A stretch of 64,000 nt of DNA from a virus. The notes beneath the pieces were generated by a model. The model was not told the origin of the DNA and did no database searches. It saw only the letters and a program-made list of their open reading frames with translations. Below are positions 1 through 30,754 of the stretch, piece by piece. A program made the position numbers and the translations under genes. The stretch lies in IMG/VR virus record IMGVR_UViG_3300028384_001071, positions 1-64,000 of that record. One strand, written 5' to 3'. The first letter of the stretch is position 1. Each line of letters opens with the position of its first letter.

Positions 1-18
1 TTCGCCAGGAGCGGGAAA

Positions 19-471
19 ATGCTGATCAACAAGCTGCTGGAGACTCCGGAGAGTCAGGCGAACCTGATGCCGATTCTGTCGGGCCAAGCTCCGAAGAAGA
101 TTCCTGAGTTTGAAATAGCGGGTAAGTGGACCCGCTACTTGGATGGTATGTTCATCGCCAATGGATCTACACCTATCAGTGATAATCCGAACGATGTAGC
201 ATTCATCAGGTGGGTAGACCGCGAGCCTGAGCCTGAGCCTGAACCGCATCCACACGGTCCTCATGTTCCGGTAGAAATGTGGACTGATCTTCAAGCTCTG
301 CATGATGAACTGGCAGCGATGATGAATGGTCAGCCGGAGTTACTAACTCCTGCTGATCTCGCTCAACAGGAGCAAGCATTCTTCCAGACTCCTCAGATGC
401 CAGAGCTACCGGGGATGCCGACATTAGACTTTGGGGCGATTATCAATGACATCCAAAATCGGCAGAAATGA
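19..471 (+). CDS. Hypothetical protein (may be truncated by the window edge)
   Basis: 150-aa ORF with Pro/Glu-rich linker, in a co-directional gene run. Confidence 0.6.
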   Translation: MLINKLLETPESQANLMPILSGQAPKKIPEFEIAGKWTRYLDGMFIANGSTPISDNPNDVAFIRWVDREPEPEPEPHPHGPHVPVEMWTDLQALHDELAAMMNGQPELLTPADLAQQEQAFFQTPQMPELPGMPTLDFGAIINDIQNRQK

Positions 472-2875: not shown

Positions 2876-3314
2876 CATACCTGAAGTATTGGAGGTCGAA
2901 AACGAGACCAGTGCGAATCCACTAACCAGAGAGGGGTTACTGTGCCATCTACGGCGACGGAACTGCATCGGTATGGTGGAAGAAGTGGACGATGAGATCA
3001 GGGGATTCATGCTGTATGAACTCCATCGCACTAGCTTGGCAATACTCAAGCTATCTGTCCATCCGAATCACCAACGTACTGGGGTGGCGAAGTCGATGAT
3101 ACGACGTCTGAAGGATAAGCTGACACAGCAACGCCGGAGGGCGATCGACATCGAGATTCATGAAGAGAACATGGAAGCTCAGCGTTTCTTGAAAGAGATG
3201 GGCTTCCGAGCCTACCACGTCCAGCGTGATTACTACGACGATGGACGGTCGGCGTATTACTTCCGATACGCTCTCCCAATGGAAGCACCTGAGATGGAGA
3301 GAATCGCTGCATAG
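2847..3314 (+). CDS. rimI: RimI-like GNAT N-acetyltransferase (Planctomycete-like)
   Basis: IRWMMRRDIPEVL, RNCIGMV, GFMLYELH, HPxHQRxGVA acetyl-CoA loop, ExNxxAQxF, xGF. Confidence 0.8.
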   Translation: MVIRWMMRRDIPEVLEVENETSANPLTREGLLCHLRRRNCIGMVEEVDDEIRGFMLYELHRTSLAILKLSVHPNHQRTGVAKSMIRRLKDKLTQQRRRAIDIEIHEENMEAQRFLKEMGFRAYHVQRDYYDDGRSAYYFRYALPMEAPEMERIAA

Positions 3315-16085: not shown

Positions 16086-16168
16086 CTGTCGAGACAAATA
16101 GAGAAAGCCCCGCATCAGCCATCGGCTCGTGACTGTCAAGACAAATAGAGAAAGCCCCGCATCAGCCA
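16075..16168. repeat. 47-bp tandem duplication (1 mismatch) covering the left arm of the terminator
   Basis: tcggctcgtgactgtc(g/a)agacaaatagagaaagccccgcatcagcca x2. Confidence 0.9.
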
Positions 16169-16189
16169 CAGTGGCTGATGCGGGGCTTT
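16151..16189. terminator. Bidirectional intrinsic terminator between convergent operons
   Basis: aaagccccgcatcagcca-cag-tggctgatgcggggcttt, perfect 18-bp stem. Confidence 0.85.
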
Positions 16190-16195
16190 GTTCGT

Positions 16196-16609
16196 TTACG
16201 AAGACCGGTACGATAAGCCAGGGCCGTGAGCCGAGACCGTATCGCCGAGAGCCGTGTGCCGAGCTATCACGCCAAGCACGTAGTTGATGCCGAACGTCCC
16301 TTTAAGGAACTGATTCCCAGACTCCGACTTAATGTCGATAGTGTAAGTATCCCCACGATCCGCGAGATCAACACCATCCTTCCAAGCCAGAACCGTACCA
16401 ACCGAAGCCCGTGAACAGGGCAAGTGGTAGAACTCGATAGTGTCACCGTTAGATGCAACACTGCCGACAATACCATCTTCGATCTCGATGAAGACTTGGT
16501 CGTCACCTTGAAGCCGAAGCTGGACATTGGGGCCAGCCCGTACGATGATGTCGGCCTCGAAGTCCGAGTCCGAGGACGCACAAGCATATTCAGATATCTT
16601 CAACATTAT
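16196..16609 (-). CDS. Hypothetical early protein
   Basis: GGAGG RBS, ATG overlapping the upstream stop. Confidence 0.6.
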   Translation of the reverse strand: MMLKISEYACASSDSDFEADIIVRAGPNVQLRLQGDDQVFIEIEDGIVGSVASNGDTIEFYHLPCSRASVGTVLAWKDGVDLADRGDTYTIDIKSESGNQFLKGTFGINYVLGVIARHTALGDTVSAHGPGLSYRSS

Positions 16610-17004
16610 CCCTCCAATGATAAGTGAGTGACCTTGGTCAGTTCGAATGACCTGACCCCTGCTGGTGAACCAATCACCGGCTTCTTGGCTGATGGCCCCA
16701 GCCAATCGACTAGGTCTTCGAACGTAAGTTCATTACCGGCCGCGTCAATGTAGGAATCCTTACCACGAACCAAGTCAGCCAGTTCGATGTAAGTCTTCCC
16801 ATTGTGCTCGACAATGTTGCCGTTCCGTTTGCCCCACTGTCGGACACCAGTCCCCGGAGGTCGAAGATAGCCAATAAAGGCCGATGTCTTGATAACGCCA
16901 TCCCAAGGGCATGACTTCTTCAACCGGGGTGAGGACTGGTAGCCAATAGCGAGACGACAAGGAACAGATAGTTGCTGCACCTGAGCCACGCTAACGTTCA
17001 TTGA
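16606..17004 (-). CDS. Conserved phage hypothetical protein, paralog of 1795-2292
   Basis: GGAGG RBS; RQWGKR, VEHNGKTYI, VRSFELT. Confidence 0.65.
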   Translation of the reverse strand, partial: SMNVSVAQVQQLSVPCRLAIGYQSSPRLKKSCPWDGVIKTSAFIGYLRPPGTGVRQWGKRNGNIVEHNGKTYIELADLVRGKDSYIDAAGNELTFEDLVDWLGPSAKKPVIGSPAGVRSFELTKVTHLSLEG

Positions 17005-17224
17005 TAACCTCCACTCGAAATCCACATTGTGTAACATCCATGAGCATCAACATCTGACCGTTACGTACAGCCAGACCTTCAAGTCCTCCGTCGTCATTCA
17101 GAATACGAACCTCTTCCCCGTTCCCGAGGTAGTGGGCATTCTGAAACAAGTCGGTAACCGCCGACTCGTAATCAGGATAAACCTGATCACAAGTGTAGGC
17201 CCCGAATGCATCGATAACAATCAT
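16991..17224 (-). CDS. Hypothetical early protein
   Basis: ATGA coupling. Confidence 0.55.
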   Translation of the reverse strand: MIVIDAFGAYTCDQVYPDYESAVTDLFQNAHYLGNGEEVRILNDDGGLEGLAVRNGQMLMLMDVTQCGFRVEVINER

Positions 17225-17433
17225 CGTCCCAACTCCCGACCATCCATCTGGCGTTCAATCTCCCGCTTGGCACGATACGAACGGTAAGGTTCGATCACAA
17301 CCGGGCGGTAACGCCGGCGGTGAGACTGGAGCAGGGTAGCCGTACTCGCAGCCATCACACATAAGACTAAGATCGCAACGATCCCAACCTTAACATCGTG
17401 GATGGTGGAGCCGGCAAGCTTACGCCTTGCCAT
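17221..17433 (-). CDS. Small membrane protein
   Basis: GGAGGTG RBS; hydrophobic VGIVAILVLCVMAASTA. Confidence 0.6.
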   Translation of the reverse strand: MARRKLAGSTIHDVKVGIVAILVLCVMAASTATLLQSHRRRYRPVVIEPYRSYRAKREIERQMDGRELGR

Positions 17434-17452
17434 GTGGCACCTCCGCAAATAC

Positions 17453-17521
17453 TGCACTGAATCCCGCTCACCAACCCTATCACGTTACGAACGTGATGGG
17501 TCCGTTAGCCGAATCAGTGCA
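17453..17521 (-). promoter_or_regulatory. Long imperfect RNA hairpin, RNase III-like processing site candidate
   Basis: tgcactga...atcacgtt-cgt-aacgtgat...tcagtgca. Confidence 0.55.
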
Positions 17522-17556
17522 TGGGAAACCTCAGCGTACTGCTGGAGCCATGAAAT

Positions 17557-18096
17557 TCAAACAAGTCGTGTTACGGCTGACAACGTAGCAGCCACCGACC
17601 CTGTAACATACGCACCTCCATCTTCATAAGTCGCGGCGTACAACAGTGCTTCCCACAGATTGTAAGTCCTGAGGTCAGCACCAAACTGGATGTACGCCCC
17701 TTGATCCAGACAATTACTCGACAGACAATGTCGAGCAGCATCTTGAACGTTACCAGCCACACCTCTGACAGCCCTGAGCTTGTCCTTGACTGTGGTATAT
17801 TCATCGAGGAACACACGAGCCTTCAAGAACCAGACAGGAGCCGTCACAAACCCGGAATCAATACTCCGACCCTCGGGGTCGACAGTACAGATCTGAGTAG
17901 CAGCCTCTTCCCACCATTCGGAGTGAGTACTCCAAGTCTTGATGAGAACCGAACCCGGCGGAATGTCAGCTTCACTCACGGAAGTCGTGAGTGTTGCGAA
18001 TGGTTCTTCACCATCCAGCAAGCAGATAGCTGGCTTCCCCGTAGCTTGATACGTTTCATACTTCACTGTGAGCTTACGCCCGAGTACAGTAATCAT
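17557..18096 (-). CDS. Early protein (N-terminus DUF4313-like), enclosed by stem 18116-18130/17535-17549
   Basis: GAGGTG RBS before ATG 18096; Y...G.PAI.L...EPFATLT pattern. Confidence 0.65.
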   Translation of the reverse strand: MITVLGRKLTVKYETYQATGKPAICLLDGEEPFATLTTSVSEADIPPGSVLIKTWSTHSEWWEEAATQICTVDPEGRSIDSGFVTAPVWFLKARVFLDEYTTVKDKLRAVRGVAGNVQDAARHCLSSNCLDQGAYIQFGADLRTYNLWEALLYAATYEDGGAYVTGSVAATLSAVTRLV

Positions 18097-18139
18097 AGGA
18101 CACCTCATCTCTAAAGGCTCCAGCAGCACGGTACTTCCA

Positions 18140-18293
18140 ATATTGCAAGGCTCTCAGCCCCGGACAACACATCCGGGAGCCGAGAGCCCTGTAATATAAA
18201 TAACCGGACCCCAACTCTCGGCTCACGGCTAACCGCGATTCCGACCAGTGAATTGGTCTACAGACTTGCTGGTCAAGCAGTCAAGCCCGGTTA
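18140..18293 (-). ncRNA. Structured intergenic RNA (multi-hairpin domain plus a long hairpin)
   Basis: Stem 18201-18216/18279-18293 enclosing small hairpins; about 25-bp hairpin 18140-18197 with G-U pairs. Confidence 0.45.
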
Positions 18294-18308
18294 AATAACC
18301 CTCCTTGG

Positions 18309-18422
18309 TTATCGATCGATTTGTGGAACCCGTGGACCCCAGTCCCATTGCGTAGGGTGCTGTATTCCAGCACACCCGCTAAGACACGAGATTGTGATCA
18401 GGGCGATGATGAGTCGTTTCAT
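18309..18422 (-). CDS. 37-aa lipoprotein (not in the ORF track)
   Basis: MKRLIIALITISCLSG|CAGIQHPTQWDWGPRVPQIDR; lipobox LSGC; AAGGA RBS. Confidence 0.75.
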   Translation of the reverse strand: MKRLIIALITISCLSGCAGIQHPTQWDWGPRVPQIDR

Positions 18423-18475
18423 GATATCCATTCCTTTGGTTAAGTGGTGAGTGCCGAGAATCCGGGAGCTTGCAA

Positions 18476-18595
18476 TTAGTCATTCGTAATCATGCGGATA
18501 CAGTGTGAAGACCTTGGTATTTGACCCCACCTCTGCAGCATATCATCCTCACCGTAGTGAGCGACAACTTCGAGTAGGTCAGCACGTTTACGCAT
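18476..18595 (-). CDS. 39-aa early peptide enclosed by stem 18614-18638/18449-18473
   Basis: GAGGTG RBS, ATG 18595; flanked by 25-bp inverted arms. Confidence 0.55.
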   Translation of the reverse strand: MRKRADLLEVVAHYGEDDMLQRWGQIPRSSHCIRMITND

Positions 18596-18672
18596 AGGGC
18601 ACCTCGCTTTCCAGCAAGCTCCCGGATTCTCGACACTCGTACGATGCTTCCATTGACAGCTCCAAGCCGATA

Positions 18673-18942
18673 CTACTCACCGTCTGAAGACATCGCTCCT
18701 GCTACAGCTTGGACAGCTTCGACCGCACGTTGCGACGAACCAGCCAGCTTTATCAACTCACGAGCAGCCGTGAACAGTGTCTTTGAGCTAGGCATTCCCG
18801 GCATACGTTCATCTAGCAGGAACTCCTGCACGCTTCGACCACTGTCCAGAATCATCTGACGCAATAGTTTGCACTCGGCTATTGACGCACCTGTCCGGCG
18901 GACAAGTGACGCCACCTCTGGCATTTCACGTGGATCGCTCAT
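18673..18942 (-). CDS. Early protein, paralog of 19014-19304
   Basis: GAGGTG RBS; shared SVQEFLL and LFxAAxxLxxLAG. Confidence 0.7.
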   Translation of the reverse strand: MSDPREMPEVASLVRRTGASIAECKLLRQMILDSGRSVQEFLLDERMPGMPSSKTLFTAARELIKLAGSSQRAVEAVQAVAGAMSSDGE

Positions 18943-19013
18943 AGGCACCTCACATTCTAGGTGAGAGCATCGGACTCGGAACTGCCAATTAGCAGTTCTG
19001 GCTTGACTGTCGG

Positions 19014-19304
19014 TTAGTCGTTTCTGAACTTAAGATAAGACTCAAGAACTTCCCGAGCCATCGCATAATCATTCCCTGCAAGAATGACCAATCTCTCAGC
19101 GGCATCGAATAAGGCCAGCACATTGCTGGCCTCAGACTCACGATCCTTCATTGTTAGCAGGAACTCCTGCACCGAGCCGCCCTCACTCACAATATGCGAA
19201 CGTAGGGCTTTGGCCTCAGCCAGTGGACACTGGCATTGTCGCATGATTTCCGCCAACTCCAAGGGTTCGTAGTTGACGTCGATCTCATCAGTAGATTTGG
19301 ACAT
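19014..19304 (-). CDS. Early protein, paralog of 18673-18942
   Basis: AGGAGG RBS; shared motifs. Confidence 0.7.
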   Translation of the reverse strand: MSKSTDEIDVNYEPLELAEIMRQCQCPLAEAKALRSHIVSEGGSVQEFLLTMKDRESEASNVLALFDAAERLVILAGNDYAMAREVLESYLKFRND

Positions 19305-19373
19305 ATAGCGTCCTCCTGTCTAGACAGTCAATCGAACCAGAACTGCCAATCACAGGCACCCGCGAATTGGGAA

Positions 19374-19808
19374 TTATTCGGGTAGGTTAATCACTTTGAC
19401 CGCACCTAAGCCTTGCAACTTTCGATCGTTGAAGGCTTGAGATGTGTCAGGGTTCATGAATGACCCATGAACCTTGAGGGCACCGCTGGTCGTTGTTACG
19501 ACAGCGTACATTGGCTGATCTGTACGGCTCACGACGAGCCGACCATCCTCACGATAGAGGACAGTTCCAACCGCACGTGAACCCTGCCAGATGATGAAGC
19601 ATTCGACTTTATGCTCCTGAGCATTGAAAGCGTTGAGAGCCTGACGCAGTGCGTCTTCGAATGTCTCGAATTCAGCCCGAATGTTCAGGCTGTCGATTAG
19701 TCCAGACATCCCATCTAATAGGCCGGCAATCGGGTCAAGTGACCCGACCGAACCGTACGTTTTCTGAGTGGCAGCGGTCACGGTGTATTTGATGCGTTCT
19801 GAAATCAT
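19374..19808 (-). CDS. Hypothetical early protein
   Basis: GAGGTG RBS; enclosed by a 25-bp stem. Confidence 0.7.
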   Translation of the reverse strand: MISERIKYTVTAATQKTYGSVGSLDPIAGLLDGMSGLIDSLNIRAEFETFEDALRQALNAFNAQEHKVECFIIWQGSRAVGTVLYREDGRLVVSRTDQPMYAVVTTTSGALKVHGSFMNPDTSQAFNDRKLQGLGAVKVINLPE

Positions 19809-19849
19809 AGACACCTCGCGTTTCTAGCGGGTGCCCATGATTGGCAGTT

Positions 19850-20064
19850 CTGCCTATATCGAGCGTCGATTTCGATGTTGTCGAGTGTCGACTTGCGAAA
19901 TCTCGTGTTTAGGCTCTCGGCTGTAGGCTGGTTTGACCCTCAATGGGCATCTCAGAGAAGACGATTCCAGCCCTAAATGAGCCGAAATCACTAAGAAACG
20001 CGGCATATCGGGACAAACCAAGCCTACATGACGAGGTGCCTACCACGTCCGCTCGACTGGGCAG
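19850..20064 (-). ncRNA. Structured non-coding element
   Basis: Nested inverted repeats 19850-19865/20050-20064 and 19922-19939/20010-20028; no ORF in the track. Confidence 0.4.
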
Positions 20065-20094
20065 GTCCGATGTAAATCACAGTACGGAGCTTAA

Positions 20095-20139
20095 ACCGCC
20101 GGGTGGGAATTGAACCCACCGATACGCCATGTCAGCGGT
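20095..20139 (-). ncRNA. Minimal tRNA-like element (acceptor stem plus T-arm, no anticodon arm)
   Basis: accgctg-acatggcgtatc-ggtggg-TTCAATT-cccacc-cggcggt. Confidence 0.55.
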
Positions 20140-20172
20140 AAGCCGGAGCCGAGAGCCGGGAGCCGAGCCTAG

Positions 20173-20517
20173 TTAAACCGCAGGTTCAATTGTGTACACC
20201 CCATCCTCCTCAACTACGCGATGCTTACCCATCAGTTGCGGGTCAAGCTGGTGACACGTCAACATCACGGCATTGAAAGCATCGCAAGCATCTTGCGAAC
20301 TCTGCACCCGATGAACAGTCGGCTCCCACTTCGAGGCACCGTGGTCATACGAGAACACAACCTGAATCCGCACTTCGGGATTCAGATCTGTACGAGCTTG
20401 CTGAAGACGACCAATCAGCTTGGTCATCTCCACACGTCGAGCATGTGGCATGTCCAACCGATTAGTAGCAATCAACATTTCGATAGCGTCAGTCACTACT
20501 TGCTGTAAGTCAGTCAT
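20173..20517 (-). CDS. Hypothetical early protein
   Basis: GAGGT RBS; enclosed by a 17-bp stem. Confidence 0.7.
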   Translation of the reverse strand: MTDLQQVVTDAIEMLIATNRLDMPHARRVEMTKLIGRLQQARTDLNPEVRIQVVFSYDHGASKWEPTVHRVQSSQDACDAFNAVMLTCHQLDPQLMGKHRVVEEDGVYTIEPAV

Positions 20518-20600
20518 AGGTACCTCATTTCTAAGGCTCCCATCTCTCGGCAGTACGGCACTTTCAGAGGAGTTCCCGGTGAAGGGAGCAGAGCTACTGA

Positions 20601-22091
20601 CTAAGCCGAGGCATCCGACGTATCGGGTGTCTCTGAGGAGGCGTCTACATCGCCAGTAACAGGGTCCGAGGCAGCGGCGGCTTCAGTCACAGCTTCTTGG
20701 AAGCTGCTCCAAAGTGTCCGCTGTGTTTCCTCTTCCAGGTCACCGAGAGATGCAAATGTCATCTCGATTTGCTGGTACGTAACATCATCGACGCCGATCA
20801 GGTACTGACAAGCGGGAGCACGGGTAACCGTCTCCGTGAGCTTGGTAGCATCGTCCTGATCGACCGCTTGCATCGCGAGCTTGACGAACGGATTGGCGTG
20901 AGTGTCGGCCATCGAGTTGATGGAGTCACGCTCCATCTGCTTCGACCGCGTCTTCTTGCCAGTCAGTTGTCGCTCGATCCACGCGTTCATAATGTCAGGC
21001 GTCGGCCGAACCATTTCCGGCTTCGGCGGATTCAAGCCCGTACGACGAGTATTCTCGTCGTTGAACTTTCGATCAGTTTCGCACATGTTGCCCATTGGAT
21101 AGATGAAGTCGGGGTGGCCAATGACCGTGCCCTGACCTTGGAAGGCGTACTGGTTGAACGAGGTCCACGGAAGGTGGTCCGGGTTCGGGTACGACTTGCC
21201 GTCATCGTCCTTGAGCGTGGCGGGTTGCTGGATACGCTCGGCGAACCGAATAGCAGCCCACGCGTCTCGCTCTTCCTTGGATAGCGACCCGTCCGCTGCC
21301 CTTTGTCGAGCATAGATGTCGACCTTGGAAGCGAAGTAGAATCGCAGCCCCTTGGTTGAGCCACCAAGCTCCCGGCGGACCTGCGTTTGAGACTTGCCAT
21401 AGTTCTCAACGAGATCGAGAACCGTAGCGAGCGTCTCACCCGCAGCCATCTGCTTGAAGCCTGCATCCTTACCGTGATTCTCACGGAGTTGAGCCATCCG
21501 ACGTGAAGCCACATCGAGATAACGCTTCTCCTTGTTGTGAGGCACGATTGCATGGATATGCGTGGGAATCTTGTCAGCGACCTGCTCCGGCTGGAGCTTC
21601 GGGTCACCGGCAGCATTGACCGCGTTAAGGTAGTTCATGACACAAGCGTCAAGCACGACCGAAGCACGACGATTCGCCGTGACCCCAACGTACTTGGGCT
21701 TCTTGAACTTGACCTTGCCGTCACCCCCAATCGACTCGATGTAGAGCCATTCGAAGGTGGCGACCGCAGCCTGTGCGTATTCCAGCCCAGGAATACGAAC
21801 CGTCTTGCCATCGCGGGTGATCGGCACAGCGTCCAACTTGTCCTCGGTTTTGAGGATCGAGTTGAGCCGGTTCCATTCGTTCTGGCGAAGCTCCAAGATA
21901 CGAGCGACCTCGTCCTTGTTTGCCAGTTCGACGATTGCCGGATGCTGAGCATCCCATCCCGGTGCGATCTGGTCACGGATTTCGCGAAGCTGAGCCGCTG
22001 AACCGTAGTCCACGCGGATGTTGCGAGCAGGGTCGTGACCGACGAGAGCGAACTCGTTGCATTTCGGTTCAGGAGTTGTTGGTACTGTCAT
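20601..22091 (-). CDS. Large ParB-like protein (ParB/Srx-like domain plus HTH)
   Basis: RNIRVDYG..LREI...I..GW...P; YVGVTANRR (GxRR-like); AQLRENH; E.LA...L...YGKSQTQVRRELG; AAGGA RBS at ATG 22091. Confidence 0.55.
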   Translation of the reverse strand: MTVPTTPEPKCNEFALVGHDPARNIRVDYGSAAQLREIRDQIAPGWDAQHPAIVELANKDEVARILELRQNEWNRLNSILKTEDKLDAVPITRDGKTVRIPGLEYAQAAVATFEWLYIESIGGDGKVKFKKPKYVGVTANRRASVVLDACVMNYLNAVNAAGDPKLQPEQVADKIPTHIHAIVPHNKEKRYLDVASRRMAQLRENHGKDAGFKQMAAGETLATVLDLVENYGKSQTQVRRELGGSTKGLRFYFASKVDIYARQRAADGSLSKEERDAWAAIRFAERIQQPATLKDDDGKSYPNPDHLPWTSFNQYAFQGQGTVIGHPDFIYPMGNMCETDRKFNDENTRRTGLNPPKPEMVRPTPDIMNAWIERQLTGKKTRSKQMERDSINSMADTHANPFVKLAMQAVDQDDATKLTETVTRAPACQYLIGVDDVTYQQIEMTFASLGDLEEETQRTLWSSFQEAVTEAAAASDPVTGDVDASSETPDTSDASA

Positions 22092-22380
22092 CAGAGTGTC
22101 CTTTCGGGACGTGCTGACAAGCACCAGTAGCCGAGAGCCGAGTAGTTGTACCGCCGTCGTCAAATCCGCCGCTAGGGCTTGCACAACGCGAGGCCGAGTA
22201 GAGTGTGTGTCGATGCTAAGATCGACCGAGCTTCGAGAACCAAGACTAGGCTCCCGACTACCAGTGCCTGCCAGCAGGGTTTCGGAAGATGCGACTCGAC
22301 GTTGAGCCGCAAGGATACCGGGAACCCCTCTGGAAGCACCGTACTGCTATCAAGAGGATCATTTCGAGGCACCGCGTTGA

Positions 22381-22755
22381 TCAGATAGCCTTGCCATACT
22401 TAGCAAGGAACGCGAGCATTTCCTGCCGGGTTTGCGTGTACCGTACCTTCACTTTCCGCGTAGTGTTATGGTGGAAGGTAGTCCGTACTGGACCGGCGAA
22501 GTCTTGGTGCATCCGCACCGGGTGGCGATTCGTGCCCGTGTGATTGTGCAGCATGAACCGCGTACGTCGGTGGGTTTCCACCGGAATCGTACGCTCTTCG
22601 TTGCGTGCCCAACCTTCGGCACATTCGTACCACGATTTCGTGTCGAATAGCGTACCGTTGCGGTAGTAGTAGATATCGAGATACCTGCGACCCCACACGA
22701 AACGCTGGTCGATTGTTATCGTCAACTTACGTCGTGAGCGTTTGGATCGTTTCAT
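22381..22755 (-). CDS. Basic early protein
   Basis: GAGGTG RBS; Arg/Lys-rich N-terminus. Confidence 0.65.
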   Translation of the reverse strand: MKRSKRSRRKLTITIDQRFVWGRRYLDIYYYRNGTLFDTKSWYECAEGWARNEERTIPVETHRRTRFMLHNHTGTNRHPVRMHQDFAGPVRTTFHHNTTRKVKVRYTQTRQEMLAFLAKYGKAI

Positions 22756-22810
22756 TGCACACCTCAATTCTATCGGTGTGCAGTACCTCACCCCTTGCGG
22801 GGCTTAGCGG

Positions 22811-22897
22811 CTAGAATGGCCACCACCATCGGCGGGACCGAGCCAAGCGTCGAAGAGCAGGTTGTTCAACAGTGCGAACCCAGTTCTCGAAAGTCAT
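22811..22897 (-). CDS. 28-aa Arg/Trp-rich peptide, first ORF of the early operon (not in the ORF track)
   Basis: GAGGT RBS; MTFENWVRTVEQPALRRLARSRRWWWPF; enclosed by a 27-bp stem. Confidence 0.65.
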   Translation of the reverse strand: MTFENWVRTVEQPALRRLARSRRWWWPF

Positions 22898-22940
22898 AGC
22901 GTACCTCATTCATTGCAAGGAATAGGGTACTGCACACCGA

Positions 22941-23645
22941 TTCGGGATTGCCCGGCCCTTGAATCTATCCCCAGCCGGCCCACACTTCTGTTGGTACGTT
23001 GGAACCCACCTGTCCGGATTGTCAGGCTGCCGGGACAAGTCAACCGGGATTCCTGAACTCAGGTAAAGAACACGGGGAACCCGTACGGCTAAGCAGGGAG
23101 CACTCCGGAGAGTGCATCAGGCTGGCGGTTATTAGCTGGCCAGCGTGCTCGCACGAGGGATAGATTCAAGAGCCGGGGCGGTGCCCCGAAAAGATCCTCT
23201 TGATTATTTGCATCGGTGGTTATTTGCCTACTCACGCCGCAATGGATACCACCAAACCTGCTGCCCTTGCGTGAGTTGCTAGCCTTAAACCTTTCACGTG
23301 AGGAACCTGATACCCGCATGCATCATTGATCGGATGCACCGGTAGCCGGGACGGCACGCTAGTAGCTTTATAGTTGACTAGCTCGTGGATCACAGTACGG
23401 ATCTTGCGTATTCGTGCGCCCGTAAGGGTTTCGAGATACGCGACAACGCGAACCGTGAGACGATTATGTAAGCCGCTTGCCTGAGTGCGTACGGATTCTA
23501 TCCGCACTGAGGGAAACTGGTGTAATCCCTCCAGAGGCAGTTGCAGCGTGTACGTCTAGCCCATAACCAGCCGGGTTACGACGCACGCCAACATCAGATT
23601 GTACCGGGAGCGTACCTTTCACATAAGGGAACGAACAACACGCAA
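22941..23645 (-). ncRNA. About 700-nt structured leader or large ncRNA
   Basis: No SD-led ORF seen; 21-bp stem 23157-23177/22951-22971 and many short hairpins. Confidence 0.5.
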
Positions 23646-23651
23646 TGTCAG

Positions 23652-23680
23652 ATTGTACGCGGAGACCCTCCGCGTGTCAA
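23652..23680 (-). promoter_or_regulatory. Sigma70-type early promoter
   Basis: TTGACA-cgcggagggtctccgcg(17)-TACAAT. Confidence 0.85.
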
Positions 23681-23847
23681 CCCCGTTGACGCGGAATTTC
23701 GAAAATGGCGGAACATCGGTCACGCCGTCACCGATAGGTGAACACCCGTCGACCGAGTCCCCGTTTCCGGTTTCCCGCGTCACCCGCAGGCGACACCCTA
23801 GTATACAAACCCCCTATTTTAACACTGTTGGTGAACATTCGCTCAAA

Positions 23848-23894
23848 CCACAATATGTTGTGTCAAAACGAATGTTCACCACTATATGTTGTGG
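23848..23894. promoter_or_regulatory. Tandem NrdR-box-like sites
   Basis: ccacaatatgttgtgt (23848) and ccactatatgttgtgg (23879), 31 bp apart. Confidence 0.65.
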
Positions 23895-23964
23895 TCGAAA
23901 TTATTCTAAGATTTTACTGGACATGCCTGGTATACGAGAATGTCGTCATAAAGATTCACGAAAA

Positions 23965-24245
23965 TAATCACCTTGACGACACATGTCATAATGGCAGTCG
24001 TCATTCCGAGGACATCTGTCAAGATGGCAGTATCATATTGATCACACTGCCATTATGACATGTCATAATGGCAGGTGGCATAGTCACTGTGACACTGTCA
24101 CAATGGCAGTTGTCGTCACTTTGAGTACACTGCCACAATGGCAGTCATCACAATGACGACAGCCATAATGGCAGGTGTAGTCATAATGAGGACAGGGTGG
24201 GTCAAATTGACCTGTCAAAATGGCAGTGTTGTCAGTATGATACAA
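23965..24245. repeat. Array of about 17 short dyads (YCA-N3-TGR; best copies TGTCAnAATGGCAG)
   Basis: Copies near 23984, 24017, 24048, 24061, 24096, 24131, 24161, 24213, with weaker copies in between. Confidence 0.8.
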
Positions 24246-24460
24246 CGCCCCATCGACTCTGAATTATACGGAATTTCCGCAGGCCGTTTCGCGGAGCGGT
24301 GAGGCTCTCGGCTCCCATCTCAAGGGCCGTGACTCTTAACCTGCGACTCTCGGCTCCCATCTCAGGGAGGGTGGGTCAAATGGAGCGAGGAAGCATCGAA
24401 GCGTAGAAGCAAGTAAGCGAAGTCCGCAGAGCGAATATCTCTAAGAATCAAGAGCCGAGA

Positions 24461-24636
24461 GCCTGTAGCACATCAAATACACCCAATCCGCGGAAGCCTG
24501 TAGTACATCAAATACACCCAATCCGCGGAAGCCTGTGGGTGGGTCAAATACACCCAATCCGCGGAAGCCTGTAGCACATCGTAGGCACCCAATCCGCGGA
24601 AAGCCATACTACACCATCCATACCCAATCCGCGGAA
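24461..24636 (+). repeat. Five iteron-like direct repeats, about 35-bp period
   Basis: Invariant ACCCAATCCGCGGAA at 24481, 24516, 24552, 24587, 24622. Confidence 0.9.
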
Positions 24637-24778
24637 ACGGTGGCTGGGCGTATTCCGATGTGGCAAGAATCTGTGCAATTATTTCTGAGACTTAGTCTAG
24701 TATACTATAGAGGGAGTAGTGGAGTCACCCACCTGGGCGAACCCGATGTGGATTCCGTACAGCCATCGAGAGGTCAAT

Positions 24779-28796: not shown

Positions 28797-29075
28797 ATGA
28801 TTCATCGTACAAGCGCAGCAGGCGAGGACATTAAGGTCATTCTCAATAATGGCCGAATGAATGATGTCGACTTCATCTATGTCAGCTTTGACTCCGCACC
28901 AAGCAATGCTGAGATTCGAATCAGTGAGGGTGATGATATCGTGTTCAGTGTTGATGTAAGACAGGTCGGCATCATCCCGATTGACCTGACGAAGTATTCG
29001 ACTCAGGAAGATGTGACGATCGAGGTTCTGAACTCTTCCGGCGTCGTCGCGAAGTTGAACGTCGTTACTCAGTAA
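28797..29075 (+). CDS. Hypothetical virion-associated protein
   Basis: GGAGG RBS; beta-rich. Confidence 0.55.
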   Translation: MIHRTSAAGEDIKVILNNGRMNDVDFIYVSFDSAPSNAEIRISEGDDIVFSVDVRQVGIIPIDLTKYSTQEDVTIEVLNSSGVVAKLNVVTQ

Positions 29076-30754
29076 TGGATCTGAAGAAGCTCTTCGCTGA
29101 GCGTATAGCAAACGGACTACAACGAGCGTCGATTACGTCGCCGTCGTTGTGGGCAGAGATGTACCGTGTCATGGGTGGTAAGTCATTCCCCGGAAAGTGG
29201 GGATTCAAATACCACCCGTGGTTACGGGATATGCATGACTCCACAGCCCAATTGAATTGCGGCCAGAAAGCCGCACAGATGGGTTATACAGAATGTATGT
29301 TGAATCTGGTGTTCTTCCATATGGACATCAACTCGACAGACTGCTTGTATGTTCTACCGTCGAAGACTCCCGACGCGACTGACTTCTCTGCCTCTCGATT
29401 CGATGCAGCGTTGGACCTCAGTCTACATCTGGAGAGAATGTTCTCCGATGTTAAGAACGTTGGCCACAAGAGAGCGGGAGCCGCTAACTTGTACATTCGT
29501 GGTGCTAACTCAAAGGCAGGTTTGAGATCAATCCCTGTTGGATTCATGGTCATCGACGAGATGTCCATTATGAATCAAGACAATGTGGCACTGGCACTCG
29601 AACGTGTTAGTGGTCAGTTGGAGAAGCAGGTGTGGATGATATCCACTCCAACCATCGACGACGAGAACATCAACAAGGAATTCAACAAATCAACTCAAGA
29701 GCATTTCTTCTTCAAATGTCCGAGATGCAGTCAATACGAGGAACTGACTTTTCCTGACTCGATCAAGATCATCGGTGAAGACCCGACTGATCCCCGACTA
29801 GGTGAATCACATCTGATCTGTAAGAATACTGGATTAGAACTCCCTCACATCGTATCCGACGATCCAAGAAAGAATGCCGACGCAAAGGCTGAGTGGTTGA
29901 GCGGTGCCATCTGGACTCCCTCTCACCCTGACCGTGACATGCGTGGATTCCTAATCCCGCAACTTTATTCAGTGACCGTTAAACCGGGTGATATCGCACT
30001 TTCTTACCTCAAAGGCCTGACAGATCCGGCCGACGAACAGGAATTCTTCAATTCGAAGTTAGGCGTAACACATGCCGTTGAAGGGTCACGAGTAACAGAC
30101 AAGGAAATAGCGGATGCCAAAGGTAGCCACTCTCGCAAGGACAAGATACCCCGCAACGCCATAACAACGATGGGCGTTGATGTAGGTAACAAGTGCAACT
30201 ATGAGATCTGCCAATGGTTCTTTCCGAAGGACTTTCGACCTGAACGCCCCTCGACCGCGAGGTGTAAGGTTCTCCGATTCGGAACAATTGAAGAAATGGG
30301 CATGTTGAATAAGTTCATGGCCCAATACAACATTGCGCATTGTATCATTGACTCTCAACCTGAACGCCGTGCCGCGATCGCCTTTGCATCGAGATGGCAT
30401 GGCCGTGTGAACTTGTGCTTCTATGCCAAAGGCATTAGTGGCAAGTCGATCAACGTCCCGAAAGATCATGCCGACTATCTGATCACAGTCGATAGAACAA
30501 GCTGGCTCGATGTGTCACTTGGACGGTTCCGTGACGGGACCATCAAGATACCTATCGATGTCGATTTCGAATATCGTGAGCAGATTAAGGCACCGCAACG
30601 TGTCTACTCGAAAGACAAGAACGGTAATCCTGTAGGTACTTACGAGAGTGGTTCGAAACCGGACCACTATGCTCATTCCCGTAACTACGCAGAGATCGCG
30701 ATGGCCTTTGTTTGTAATCGTGGTCGCTCTCAGAGCATGACTGGAGTATTGTAA
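29075..30754 (+). CDS. terL: Terminase large subunit (lambda GpA-like)
   Basis: QKAAQMGYTE Walker A, MVIDE Walker B, ISTPT, CPRC, MGVDVG nuclease, DHYAH. Confidence 0.9.
   Translation: MDLKKLFAERIANGLQRASITSPSLWAEMYRVMGGKSFPGKWGFKYHPWLRDMHDSTAQLNCGQKAAQMGYTECMLNLVFFHMDINSTDCLYVLPSKTPDATDFSASRFDAALDLSLHLERMFSDVKNVGHKRAGAANLYIRGANSKAGLRSIPVGFMVIDEMSIMNQDNVALALERVSGQLEKQVWMISTPTIDDENINKEFNKSTQEHFFFKCPRCSQYEELTFPDSIKIIGEDPTDPRLGESHLICKNTGLELPHIVSDDPRKNADAKAEWLSGAIWTPSHPDRDMRGFLIPQLYSVTVKPGDIALSYLKGLTDPADEQEFFNSKLGVTHAVEGSRVTDKEIADAKGSHSRKDKIPRNAITTMGVDVGNKCNYEICQWFFPKDFRPERPSTARCKVLRFGTIEEMGMLNKFMAQYNIAHCIIDSQPERRAAIAFASRWHGRVNLCFYAKGISGKSINVPKDHADYLITVDRTSWLDVSLGRFRDGTIKIPIDVDFEYREQIKAPQRVYSKDKNGNPVGTYESGSKPDHYAHSRNYAEIAMAFVCNRGRSQSMTGVL

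Follow-up and report, generated by a model that had tools for sequence, protein, structure and literature searches.

In an uncultured 101-kb phage, a minus-strand operon (16.2–23.7 kb) was found in which almost every gene is flanked by mutually complementary arms. The analyzed window comprised 64,000 nucleotides (positions 1 to 64,000 of the IMG/VR record IMGVR_UViG_3300028384_001071). The arms of a pair lie on either side of an ORF, 116–1,736 nt apart, rather than forming a local hairpin, and neighboring helices abut or overlap, some of them being nested. The sense RNA is thus a chain of stalks, each generally containing one gene or a non-coding stretch. The observation of gene-enclosing stems was confirmed, and the arms act by pairing in the sense RNA. 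The data support selection on the sense RNA strand for this layout, which recurs in related phages. A literature search revealed no published description of gene-enclosing RNA stems for phage messages, in line with an earlier note on this DNA, which did not recognize the layout as a described one. On balance, the stems are probably rRNA-style stalks that are cut by host RNase III, releasing monocistronic mRNAs with paired ends.

The operon extends leftward from ~23.65 to 16.15 kb (Table 1) and is presumably an early one. The promoter is followed by a leader of ~440 nt without a convincing ORF; the leader and the gaps of the operon are long and untranslated. All units have the same orientation and abut each other, with inter-arm gaps of −2 to 14 nt between adjacent units, leaving no space for internal promoters; therefore, the operon should be one transcript. 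Each intergenic region holds a 3′ arm from the preceding unit and a 5′ arm from the following one, both with partners across a gene, and arms occupy nearly all intergenic sequence. Stem lengths, determined for 20 stems of four phages, ranged from 15 to 34 bp with a median of 27. Relative to the stop codon, the 3′ arms are positioned from −9 to +20 nt, and the gap between the 5′ arm and the ATG is constant at 16–19 nt in the window, the exceptions to this short spacing being unit D and the units L001_3 and G002_c of related phages (93–225 nt). The enclosed ORFs (28–496 aa) are diverse and have conserved ribosome sites, and a search of the enclosed stretches against Rfam yielded no family matches. 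The last three or four overlapping genes (16.2–17.4 kb) are without enclosing stems. One T7-like local hairpin is present in the operon, at ~18140–18190.

Table 1. Stem units and flanking elements of the minus-strand operon (WC, Watson-Crick pairs)
Feature	Span	Strand	5′ arm / 3′ arm	Pairing	Content and remarks
Promoter, sigma-70-like, likely operon start	23652..23680	-		TTGACA, 17 nt, TACAAT	11/12 consensus matches
Unit A, outer stem	22349..23204	-	23178-23204 / 22349-22375	27 positions: 25 WC, 1 G·U, 1 central mismatch	Units B and C and a 124-aa gene (22381-22755); present in MFE of 5.9-kb sense RNA
Unit B	22951..23177	-	23157-23177 / 22951-22971	21 bp: 20 WC, 1 G·U	185-nt interior without convincing gene; the only ORFs either run across the arms or have no ribosome site
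Unit C	22772..22941	-	22915-22941 / 22772-22798	27 bp: 23 WC, 3 G·U, 1 A·C	28-aa ORF (22811-22897)
Unit D	20550..22347	-	22317-22347 / 20550-20580	31 bp: 27 WC, 3 G·U, 1 A·C	496-aa gene (20601-22091) with 225-nt 5′ UTR; arms 1736 nt apart
Unit E	20148..20551	-	20535-20551 / 20148-20164	17 bp: 15 WC, 1 G·U, 1 other	114-aa gene (20173-20517); 3′ arm overlaps 5′ arm of K
Unit F	19339..19851	-	19827-19851 / 19339-19363	25 bp: 23 WC, 2 G·U; extendable to 41 nt at 78%	144-aa gene (19374-19808)
Unit G	18988..19350	-	19324-19350 / 18988-19014	27 positions: 21 WC, 3 G·U, 3 other	96-aa gene (19014-19304)
Unit H	18653..18988	-	18960-18988 / 18653-18681	26 WC and 5 G·U with bulge allowed	89-aa gene (18673-18942), paralog of the unit G gene (41% identity); G and H arms homologous
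Unit I	18449..18638	-	18614-18638 / 18449-18473	25 bp: 24 WC, 1 G·U	39-aa ORF (18476-18595)
Unit J	17535..18130	-	18116-18130 / 17535-17549	15 bp: 14 WC, 1 G·U	179-aa gene (17557-18096)
Unit K, second outer stem	18206..20168	-	~20135-20168 / ~18206-18236	28 MFE pairs, -60 kcal/mol	280-nt non-coding gap, units F to I, and a 37-aa lipoprotein-like ORF (18309-18422) without a stem of its own
Terminator-like hairpin, two-way, likely operon 3′ end	16151..16189	.		18-bp stem	

The earlier note had listed nine arm pairs, all of which are present and eight of which are strong. The second one (22780–22789/22366–22375) exists but is weak (8 Watson-Crick and 2 G·U pairs only), since its 3′ arm belongs to the 27-bp stem A. 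This stem was missing from the list, as were two further ones, B and K, the latter of ~30 bp. The proposed gene-in-a-loop layout is real throughout the operon, but instead of nine genes each in its own stem, there are units that lie inside or overlap others: stem A surrounds B, C, and a second gene, stem K surrounds F to I, and F/G and E/K share bases. Stems F and G cannot both be complete, because 12 nt of the F 3′ arm also belong to the G 5′ arm; F wins in the MFE structure, where stem G is absent. Stem K is less certain than the others, as it competes for shared bases with the 3′ arm of E. Stem J, too short to be significant alone, gains support from where its arms lie, 19 nt ahead of the ATG and 7 nt past the stop codon. 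The arms are mostly unrelated to each other, consistent with the statement that they do not form a single repeat family; the exceptions are a 13-nt motif common to stems F, G, and H, the sequence GCCGAGAG shared by E and K, and GAGAATCCGG shared by the unit I arm and two L001 arms.

Long-range inverted repeats were counted in whole genomes and in shuffles. The genome containing the window has 10 stems scoring at least 19 compared with 0.05 in 20 dinucleotide shuffles, and the values for the related phages G001 and G002 were 10 versus 0.10 and 5 versus 0, respectively. Nine of the 10 stems of the window genome fall within 16.1–24.3 kb, and three of these nine do not enclose genes: two at 23968–24243 are copies of an operator-like motif and the third, at 16096–16197, corresponds to the terminator hairpin. 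When the whole genome was scanned with strand taken into account, gene-enclosing stems were confined to the minus-strand operon. Neither of the two findings named beforehand as arguments against the layout, equally frequent stems in shuffled sequence and around late genes, was thus obtained.

Evidence for pairing at the RNA level comes from the nature of the imperfect pairs. On the sense strand, the 20 stems of the four phages contain 43 G·U versus 12 A·C (p = 3e-5 against 0.5 and p = 2e-4 against operon composition), an excess to which strand-biased mutation could contribute; the operon as a whole has no T>A skew. For the ten stems recounted in the window, the numbers were 21 G·U and 4 A·C, and the sense-strand bias reported earlier (18 G-U versus 2 C-A) holds. 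In all 14 stems compared, the duplex formed by the sense strand has the higher stability, and the whole-transcript MFE is lower for the sense strand both in the window (−2487 versus −2263) and in L001 (−1391 versus −1198). Eight of the ten stems A–J, plus K, are kept in the MFE structure of the 5.9-kb sense RNA, and the L001 fold keeps four of four. True mismatches were found in 12 of the 20 stems, mostly at relative positions 0.37–0.67; they cluster at the center or the inner end and never break the outer 8–16 bp.

The only homologous locus, L001, carries four abutting stems. In the stem around its homolog of the 496-aa gene, 15 pairs are identical to those of unit D, 9 have changed on both sides in a compensatory manner, 2 have changed on one side only, and 1 is broken, with the mismatch at position 15 kept. 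In the paralogous units G and H, pairing has survived 5 one-sided and 3 double changes within 16 positions. Covariation is based on this one homologous locus and one paralogous pair; compensatory change in homologs, the third check suggested in the earlier note, was thus observed at L001, and together with the G·U excess it bears out the proposed selection on the sense single strand. In G001 and G002, assigned to the same terminase group, the layout is present around non-homologous genes. Two G001 stems have no enclosed ORF, and the helix of G001 unit a extends into the ribosome site and, if uncut, would block translation.

The operon would be transcribed as a single long RNA, probably by the host polymerase as in the case of T7 early genes, and the flanks of each gene would pair into a near-perfect helix of 15–31 bp. 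Host RNase III would then cut each stalk near the middle, as for the 16S and 23S rRNA stalks, and release each gene as a separate message, whose 5′ and 3′ ends would be held paired by the inner 8–16 bp and so be shielded from end-dependent nucleases. After cutting, the expression of each gene would be independent of its neighbors. As a secondary effect, the 5′ arm of some units may, while still free, fold onto the ribosome site before its 3′ partner has been transcribed; this masking is partly supported. The lack of an enclosed ORF in stem B and the two G001 stems argues for processing rather than for an exclusively translational role. Since some arms overlap (F/G and E/K), the stalks cannot all exist simultaneously. 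We infer cleavage, protection, and gating, and the presence of host RNase III and its cutting rules are assumed; no RNase III or dsRNA-binding domain encoded by the phage itself was found. Circular mRNAs, suggested in the earlier note as a possible product, gained no support: RtcB, the only RNA ligase family searched, had no match in G000 (86% complete), and cutting by RNase III leaves ends with 2-nt overhangs, not a nick that could be ligated. A role for RNase III is plausible given the median stem of 27 bp, the uninterrupted outer 8–16 bp, and known cases: in vivo, the enzyme of Bacillus subtilis cuts mRNA duplexes of 10–36 bp, the cuts lying up to 505 nt apart (PMC11780869), and stalks around rRNAs are the classic example (PMC6582327).

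There is a small but appreciable probability that the helices remain uncut and serve as cis switches or closed loops for translation, in which the free 5′ arm would mask the ribosome site in the nascent RNA, the 3′ arm, available only after the gene has been transcribed in full, would capture the 5′ arm and open the site, and the closed stem would place the stop codon beside the start codon. The mean energy required to open the ribosome site (−16 to +6) drops from 10.2 kcal/mol in the nascent unit to 7.1 in the completed one, and it is 4.8 when the arm is absent; the cost falls upon unit completion in 12 of 14 units (Wilcoxon p = 0.0017). Compared with shuffled arms, real arms gave stronger masking of the site in 11 of 15 units (combined Z = 5.4; 3.5 when F is left out), so the translation gating proposed earlier has partial computational support, but masking is uneven: it is strong in only three units (F, E, and G001_a, the last being confounded because its arm overlaps the tested region) and absent in four. 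The constant arm-to-ATG gap in the window also suits a switch, as does unit F, where the 5′ arm can also pair, through its inner half, with the ribosome site of the same gene (z = 8 versus shuffled arms) and the 3′ arm looks like a degenerate copy of the ribosome-site region. On the contrary, this gap is long in D, L001_3, and G002_c, and stems B, K, and two in G001 enclose non-coding RNA or several genes; gating cannot account for stems around non-coding RNA. In most bacteria, moreover, RNase III would be expected to cut near-perfect RNA duplexes of 25–31 bp. In an elaborated version, which we regard as unlikely, the stems would form a cis strand-displacement program: the 5′ arm would keep its gene silent during transcription by occupying its own ribosome site, and the 3′ arm, made once the gene is complete, would displace the ribosome site and license translation. 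Since neighboring arms share bases (F 3′/G, G 3′/H, and E 3′/K), closing or cutting one stalk would free the next arm, and activation and excision would proceed along the transcript as an ordered 5′-to-3′ relay.

Uncut helices might instead provide structural insulation, with double-stranded intergenic RNA blocking the entry of Rho or RNase E and preventing cross-gene misfolding in an operon whose genes are frequently swapped. Such a role is consistent with the layout being kept in related phages while the genes are unrelated, with arms filling nearly all intergenic sequence, and with the length of the untranslated leader and gaps; nevertheless, it is quite unlikely, because local hairpins would insulate equally well and fold faster, leaving the across-gene arms unexplained, and such duplexes should be cut. 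It appears highly improbable that the repeats function at the DNA level, whether by forming cruciforms, by bounding invertible segments, or by serving as terminal inverted repeats of small mobile cassettes. Every gene is bounded by its own inverted repeat, and G and H look like a duplicated cassette, arms included. However, the mismatches are strand-specific G·U wobbles, a flanking direct repeat of at least 3 bp was found in none of 20 units (no target-site duplications), and ten scanned proteins, including seven enclosed genes, had no transposase or invertase match in Pfam or PHROGs. All units abut in the same direction, and their arms differ, so that one recombinase could not recognize all of them. 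Terminal inverted repeats of the IS/MITE type and invertible segments were rejected on the lack of duplications, the lack of recombinase matches among the scanned proteins, and the G·U bias.

Among known systems, promoter-early stem-loop (PeSL) cassettes, located between orphan genes of T4-type phages, are likewise repeated regulatory elements bordering fast-changing orphan early genes. PeSLs are mutually similar, directly oriented, and local, and include a promoter, whereas the phage stems comprise a unique complementary pair per gene and no internal promoters. T7 early RNase III sites (R0.3, R0.5, R1, R1.1, and R1.3), whose expected role is separating and stabilizing messages, share the double-stranded element at gene boundaries of a polycistronic early transcript, and the central mismatch of many phage stems may be comparable with T7 internal loops. 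The T7 sites, however, are local hairpins within one intergenic region and protect only the upstream 3′ end, while the phage helices are built from the two sides of a gene and would clamp both message ends; arm partners lying across genes preclude assignment to the T7 type.

Pairing between the two ends of one mRNA that alters ribosome access is known from icaR of Staphylococcus aureus, where the 3′ UTR pairs with the Shine-Dalgarno sequence, represses translation, and creates an RNase III site (PMC3868564), and from hok-type fold-back. In the phage, the 3′ arm instead targets a segment upstream of the ribosome site, and its pairing tends to leave that site accessible: the targeted segment ends 16–19 nt before the ATG, and closing the stem makes the site easier to open in 12 of 14 units, which rejects icaR-type repression, with G001 unit a as the exception. 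Toxin mRNAs of the hok/AapA type were rejected too, as the enclosed proteins are diverse (28–496 aa) and are not toxins paired with antisense RNA; no antisense promoters were flagged inside the units. The B. subtilis duplexes, cut in vivo at a 2-nt offset, are similar in length and in bridging hundreds of nucleotides, but they are scattered single sites, often within coding regions and tied to decay (PMC11780869), whereas the phage stems succeed one another regularly from gene to gene, lie in untranslated flanks, and span up to 1.7 kb.

The closest resemblance is to the stalks of rrn operons. No boxA signal, unlike in rrn, was detected in the phage operon. In rrn operons, the flanks of 16S and 23S rRNA pair over hundreds to thousands of nucleotides into helices of ~20–30 bp, with several stalks in series per transcript, and cutting by RNase III leaves the product ends paired (PMC6582327, PMC10250234). 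The phage helices are likewise formed from the flanks of the enclosed RNA and retained in the whole-transcript MFE, and with a median of 27 bp these RNA-level duplexes reach the two helical turns or so (20 bp or more) of such stalks. Since they enclose ORFs without Rfam matches rather than stable non-coding RNA, they are stalk-like in working and not members of this class. Phage stalks hold protein-coding genes, ten or more in a row and partly nested or overlapping.

All nine arm pairs that the earlier note had reported in the minus-strand operon are present in the sequence, and eight are strong, with 15–31 positions of which 78%–96% are Watson-Crick pairs and the rest mostly G·U. The pair 22780-22789/22366-22375 exists but is weak (8 Watson-Crick and 2 G·U pairs over 10 bp), and the segment 22366-22375 belongs to the 3' arm of a 27-bp stem missed by the earlier note, stem A, whose partner arm lies at 23178-23204. 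Stem A contains a 124-aa gene and two further stems, namely the 21-bp stem B, whose 185-nt interior seems to be non-coding, and stem C, which holds a 28-aa ORF. Instead of nine separate loops, the operon therefore carries a chain of abutting, overlapping or nested stalks, designated here as units A–K, with a prime marking a 3' arm. The distance between neighboring arms, −2 to 14 nt, is too small for internal promoters, so both arms of each stem must be carried on one transcript. Bases shared between neighboring units were confirmed for F'/G, G'/H, and E'/K; units F to I would lie inside helix K (−60 kcal/mol), which competes with E' (−35 kcal/mol).

The stems are 15–34 bp long (median 27). The 5' arm ends 16–19 nt upstream of the ATG in eight window units, the exception being unit D with a 225-nt UTR, and the start of the 3' arm ranges, relative to the last base of the stop codon, from 9 nt upstream to 20 nt downstream. 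The outer helix is unbroken for 8–16 bp; true mismatches are absent from the outer third of the stems and cluster at the center or near the inner end. Ribosome sites in the window are strikingly uniform, consisting of UAGAA or a near variant, 2–5 nt, GAGGU(R), 4–5 nt, and AUG, a pattern shared by the sequences that lead into the ATGs at 22897, 22755, 20517, 19808, 19304, 18942, 18595, and 18096.

The virus record is a single contig of 101,564 bp, estimated by CheckV as 86% complete; the window covers its initial 64 kb. The leftward operon probably extends from the sigma-70-like promoter to the terminator hairpin, as judged from sequence motifs (see the table). It would be an early operon, because of the promoter type, the orphan genes, and the repeat-filled control region between two divergent modules. 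The leader lacks both an Rfam match and any ORF preceded by a ribosome site, the minihelix following unit E was not called by ARAGORN or Rfam, and an Rfam search over 15.8–24.9 kb gave zero matches. Seven enclosed proteins were scanned, with no significant Pfam or PHROGs family, and nothing of use on the 496-aa protein of unit D came from the ESM Atlas. The copies of the ~14-nt motif in the control region have the look of operators or of reiterated promoter elements, and analogous repeated motifs of their own are present in G001 (TTTAGCACACTTTTTTGACAA) and G002 (CGTGCACGCTTTTTGGCCCA), two phages related by terminase. In L001, a 3.8-kb metagenome contig with a homologous locus, tandem 28-nt units occupy the relative place that the ~36-nt tandem copies have in the window, and would be a stack of promoters.

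Coordinates of features in the leftward operon, its surroundings, and contig L001
Feature	Position	Strand or direction	Remarks
Packaging and structural genes	from 24.7 kb	rightward	
Lambda gpA-type terminase	29075-30754		within rightward module
Sigma-70-like promoter (TTGACA, 17 nt, TACAAT)	23680-23652	minus	consensus match
Two-way terminator hairpin	16151-16189		probable end of leftward operon
Leader, ~440 nt	23205-23645	minus	promoter-like site to stem A
boxA-like UGUUCUUUACCU	23061-23072	minus	loop of stem B; similar to boxA in the rRNA operons of some bacteria
tRNA-like minihelix	20095-20139	minus	canonical T-arm (GGTGGGTTCAATTCCCACC); in 280-nt non-coding gap after unit E
Helix K	~20135-20168/~18206-18236		
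37-aa ORF	18309-18422	minus	lipoprotein signal peptide and lipobox (MKRLIIALITISCLSGC...); sole small gene of that stretch without its own stem
Local hairpin, ~20 bp	~18140-18190		−40 kcal/mol; after the 37-aa ORF
Unit with TTCCGCGGATTGGGT, ~5 tandem copies of ~36 nt	24460-24660	minus	upstream of operon
~14-nt motif (CTGCCATTATGACA and variants), at least 8 copies	23968-24243	both	between divergent modules
8-mer GCCGAGAG and complement	11 of 14 sites in 16244-24461 (operon and control region)		7 + 7 in genome against ~1.9 expected per strand; includes arms of E and K
GAGATGGGAGCCGAGAG, two tandem copies	24.3 kb		among GCCGAGAG sites
35-nt palindromic-hairpin element, two copies	68290-68324, 68751-68785		426 nt apart; outside window
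L001, four tandem 28-nt units	1-110		each TTGACA, 17 nt, TAGACT
L001, ~10 tandem TTAG units	2970-3008		from stop codon of 474-aa gene, before the gene's 3' arm

The stems are far more numerous than expected by chance. A whole-genome inverted-repeat scan (arms 30–4,000 nt apart, score of at least 19) found 10 stems in the window genome, whereas 20 dinucleotide shuffles averaged 0.05, and nine of the 10 lie within 16.1–24.3 kb. Three of these nine enclose no gene and represent two motif copies (23968-24243) and one terminator hairpin; the inverted repeats at 23968-24243 were rejected as stalks, since the matches arise from copies of the operator-like ~14-nt motif in both orientations. The tenth stem (68290/68751) was likewise rejected as gene-enclosing, being two palindromic hairpin copies with no ORF between them. 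A strand-aware scan revealed no stems around late genes, and stems enclosing an ORF of the same strand were found in this operon only; the outcome that the earlier note had named as refuting was thus not observed.

The sense-strand bias described in the earlier note is also evident in a fixed register: ten window stems contain 21 G·U and 4 A·C pairs, in addition to 210 Watson-Crick and 9 other positions. An A·C pair on the sense strand would be G·U on the opposite strand. Across 20 stems of four phages, the counts were 466 Watson-Crick, 43 G·U, 12 A·C, and 13 other, and the excess of G·U over A·C was significant both against 0.5 (p = 3e-5) and against the base composition of the operon (p = 2e-4). 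The sense duplex was more stable than the antisense one in all 14 stems compared. In predictions that leave out co-transcriptional kinetics and ribosomes, the 5.9-kb RNA folded at −2487 kcal/mol in the sense and −2263 kcal/mol in the antisense orientation, and the minimum free energy (MFE) structure of the sense RNA retained stems A, B, C, D, F, H, I, J, and K. Selection at the RNA level is well supported.

Comparison of a single homologous locus and a single pair of paralogous units points to compensatory change. Among 5.8 billion proteins, the 496-aa protein has only one homolog (41% identity), encoded on L001, where four abutting stems of 25–29 bp each enclose one ORF and all four appear in the MFE structure. 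The L001 stem at the homologous gene could be aligned with stem D over 28 pairs, of which 15 are identical, 2 carry one-sided changes, and 9 carry double compensatory changes, with 1 broken pair and 1 mismatch retained at position 15. In the paralogous units G and H, whose proteins are 41% identical, the homologous arms stay paired despite 5 one-sided and 3 double changes over 16 positions.

G001 and G002 have only the terminase (~50% identity) in common with the window, but their stem clusters also sit in an operon divergent from the packaging genes. With scores of at least 19, 10 stems were counted in G001 (0.10 in shuffles) and 5 in G002 (0 in shuffles). Because the genes enclosed there are not homologous to those of the window, and three further relatives (G003–G005) have few stems or none, the layout is a property of the operon and not of particular genes, and is not universal in the group. 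The region had no blastn match among cultured phages, and the 496-aa and 179-aa proteins had no relatives in IMG/VR. The terminase was found in no prophage among 185,579 genomes and its best cultured relative is at most 24% identical, so there is no cultured stand-in. The host-takeover region of SPO1, used as a cultured control, contained no gene-enclosing stems; the only inverted repeats there are copies of the early promoters.

Several readings of these stems can be weighed. Inverted repeats around genes might act in DNA, as borders of mobile cassettes or invertible segments. Such readings are very unlikely in view of the strand bias, the greater stability of the sense duplexes, the absence of flanking direct repeats of at least 3 bp at any of 20 units, and the Pfam and PHROGs scans of ten proteins, seven of them products of enclosed genes, which gave no significant recombinase match; mobile cassettes were rejected on the missing target-site duplications and the strand bias. 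Antitermination of the boxA or rrn type was dropped, since the window has no more boxA matches than chance would give (44 observed, 47 expected). Gating of translation, mentioned in the earlier note, would mean that a 5' arm covers the ribosome site for as long as the gene is unfinished; in the models it appears as a real secondary feature of some units and not as the general function. Opening the ribosome site would cost a mean of 10.2 kcal/mol with a free 5' arm, 7.1 in the complete unit, and 4.8 without the arm, and the cost drops on unit completion in 12 of 14 units (p = 0.0017). In 11 of 15 units, real arms masked the site more than shuffled ones did, with a combined Z of 5.4 that falls to 3.5 when unit F is left out. 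The effect is very uneven, strong in F and E and absent in four units, and the strong value of G001 unit a is confounded by an overlap between the arm of that unit and the region tested. The shared arms F'/G, G'/H, and E'/K would make an ordered relay possible.

No single gene lies inside stem B, stem K, or two of the G001 stems, which favors a role in processing or stability over a purely translational one. In vivo, RNase III of B. subtilis cleaves mRNA duplexes of 10–36 bp whose two cuts lie as much as 505 nt apart (PMC11780869), and the stalks that arise from pairing of the sequences on either side of 16S and 23S rRNA are classic RNase III targets (PMC6582327). Since the phage stems have the dimensions of RNase III substrates, the host enzyme probably cuts each stalk; single-gene messages would thereby be set free, with both ends held paired by the inner half-helix. 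We infer every step beyond helix formation, with such excision and end clamping as the probable function, possibly beside a licensing of translation that the models suggest for some units. Searches of the 86% complete genome turned up no gene of the phage's own for RNase III, a dsRNA-binding domain, or an RtcB ligase.

The stem observation is thus confirmed and extended. If the proposed function is true, every gene would bring or fill its own insulated socket, which would account for predictable expression in operons full of fast-swapping orphan genes. Such genes are often involved in host takeover or anti-defence. The layout could also be a natural design for insulating and stabilizing genes in engineered operons. 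In full-text literature searches, no description was found of gene-enclosing stems in phage mRNAs, nor of a gene-by-gene helix series in a phage operon. Single features are shared with the cellular 5'-3' pairing of icaR and hok and with the long-range RNase III sites that are scattered among mRNAs of B. subtilis. The closest known system in form is the processing stalks of rRNA, and the closest in setting is the early RNase III sites of T7, which are local hairpins. In T7, only the 3' end of each message is protected, whereas the stalks described here, if cut, would clamp both ends and provide a second, more complete phage route from one transcript to stable single-gene messages.
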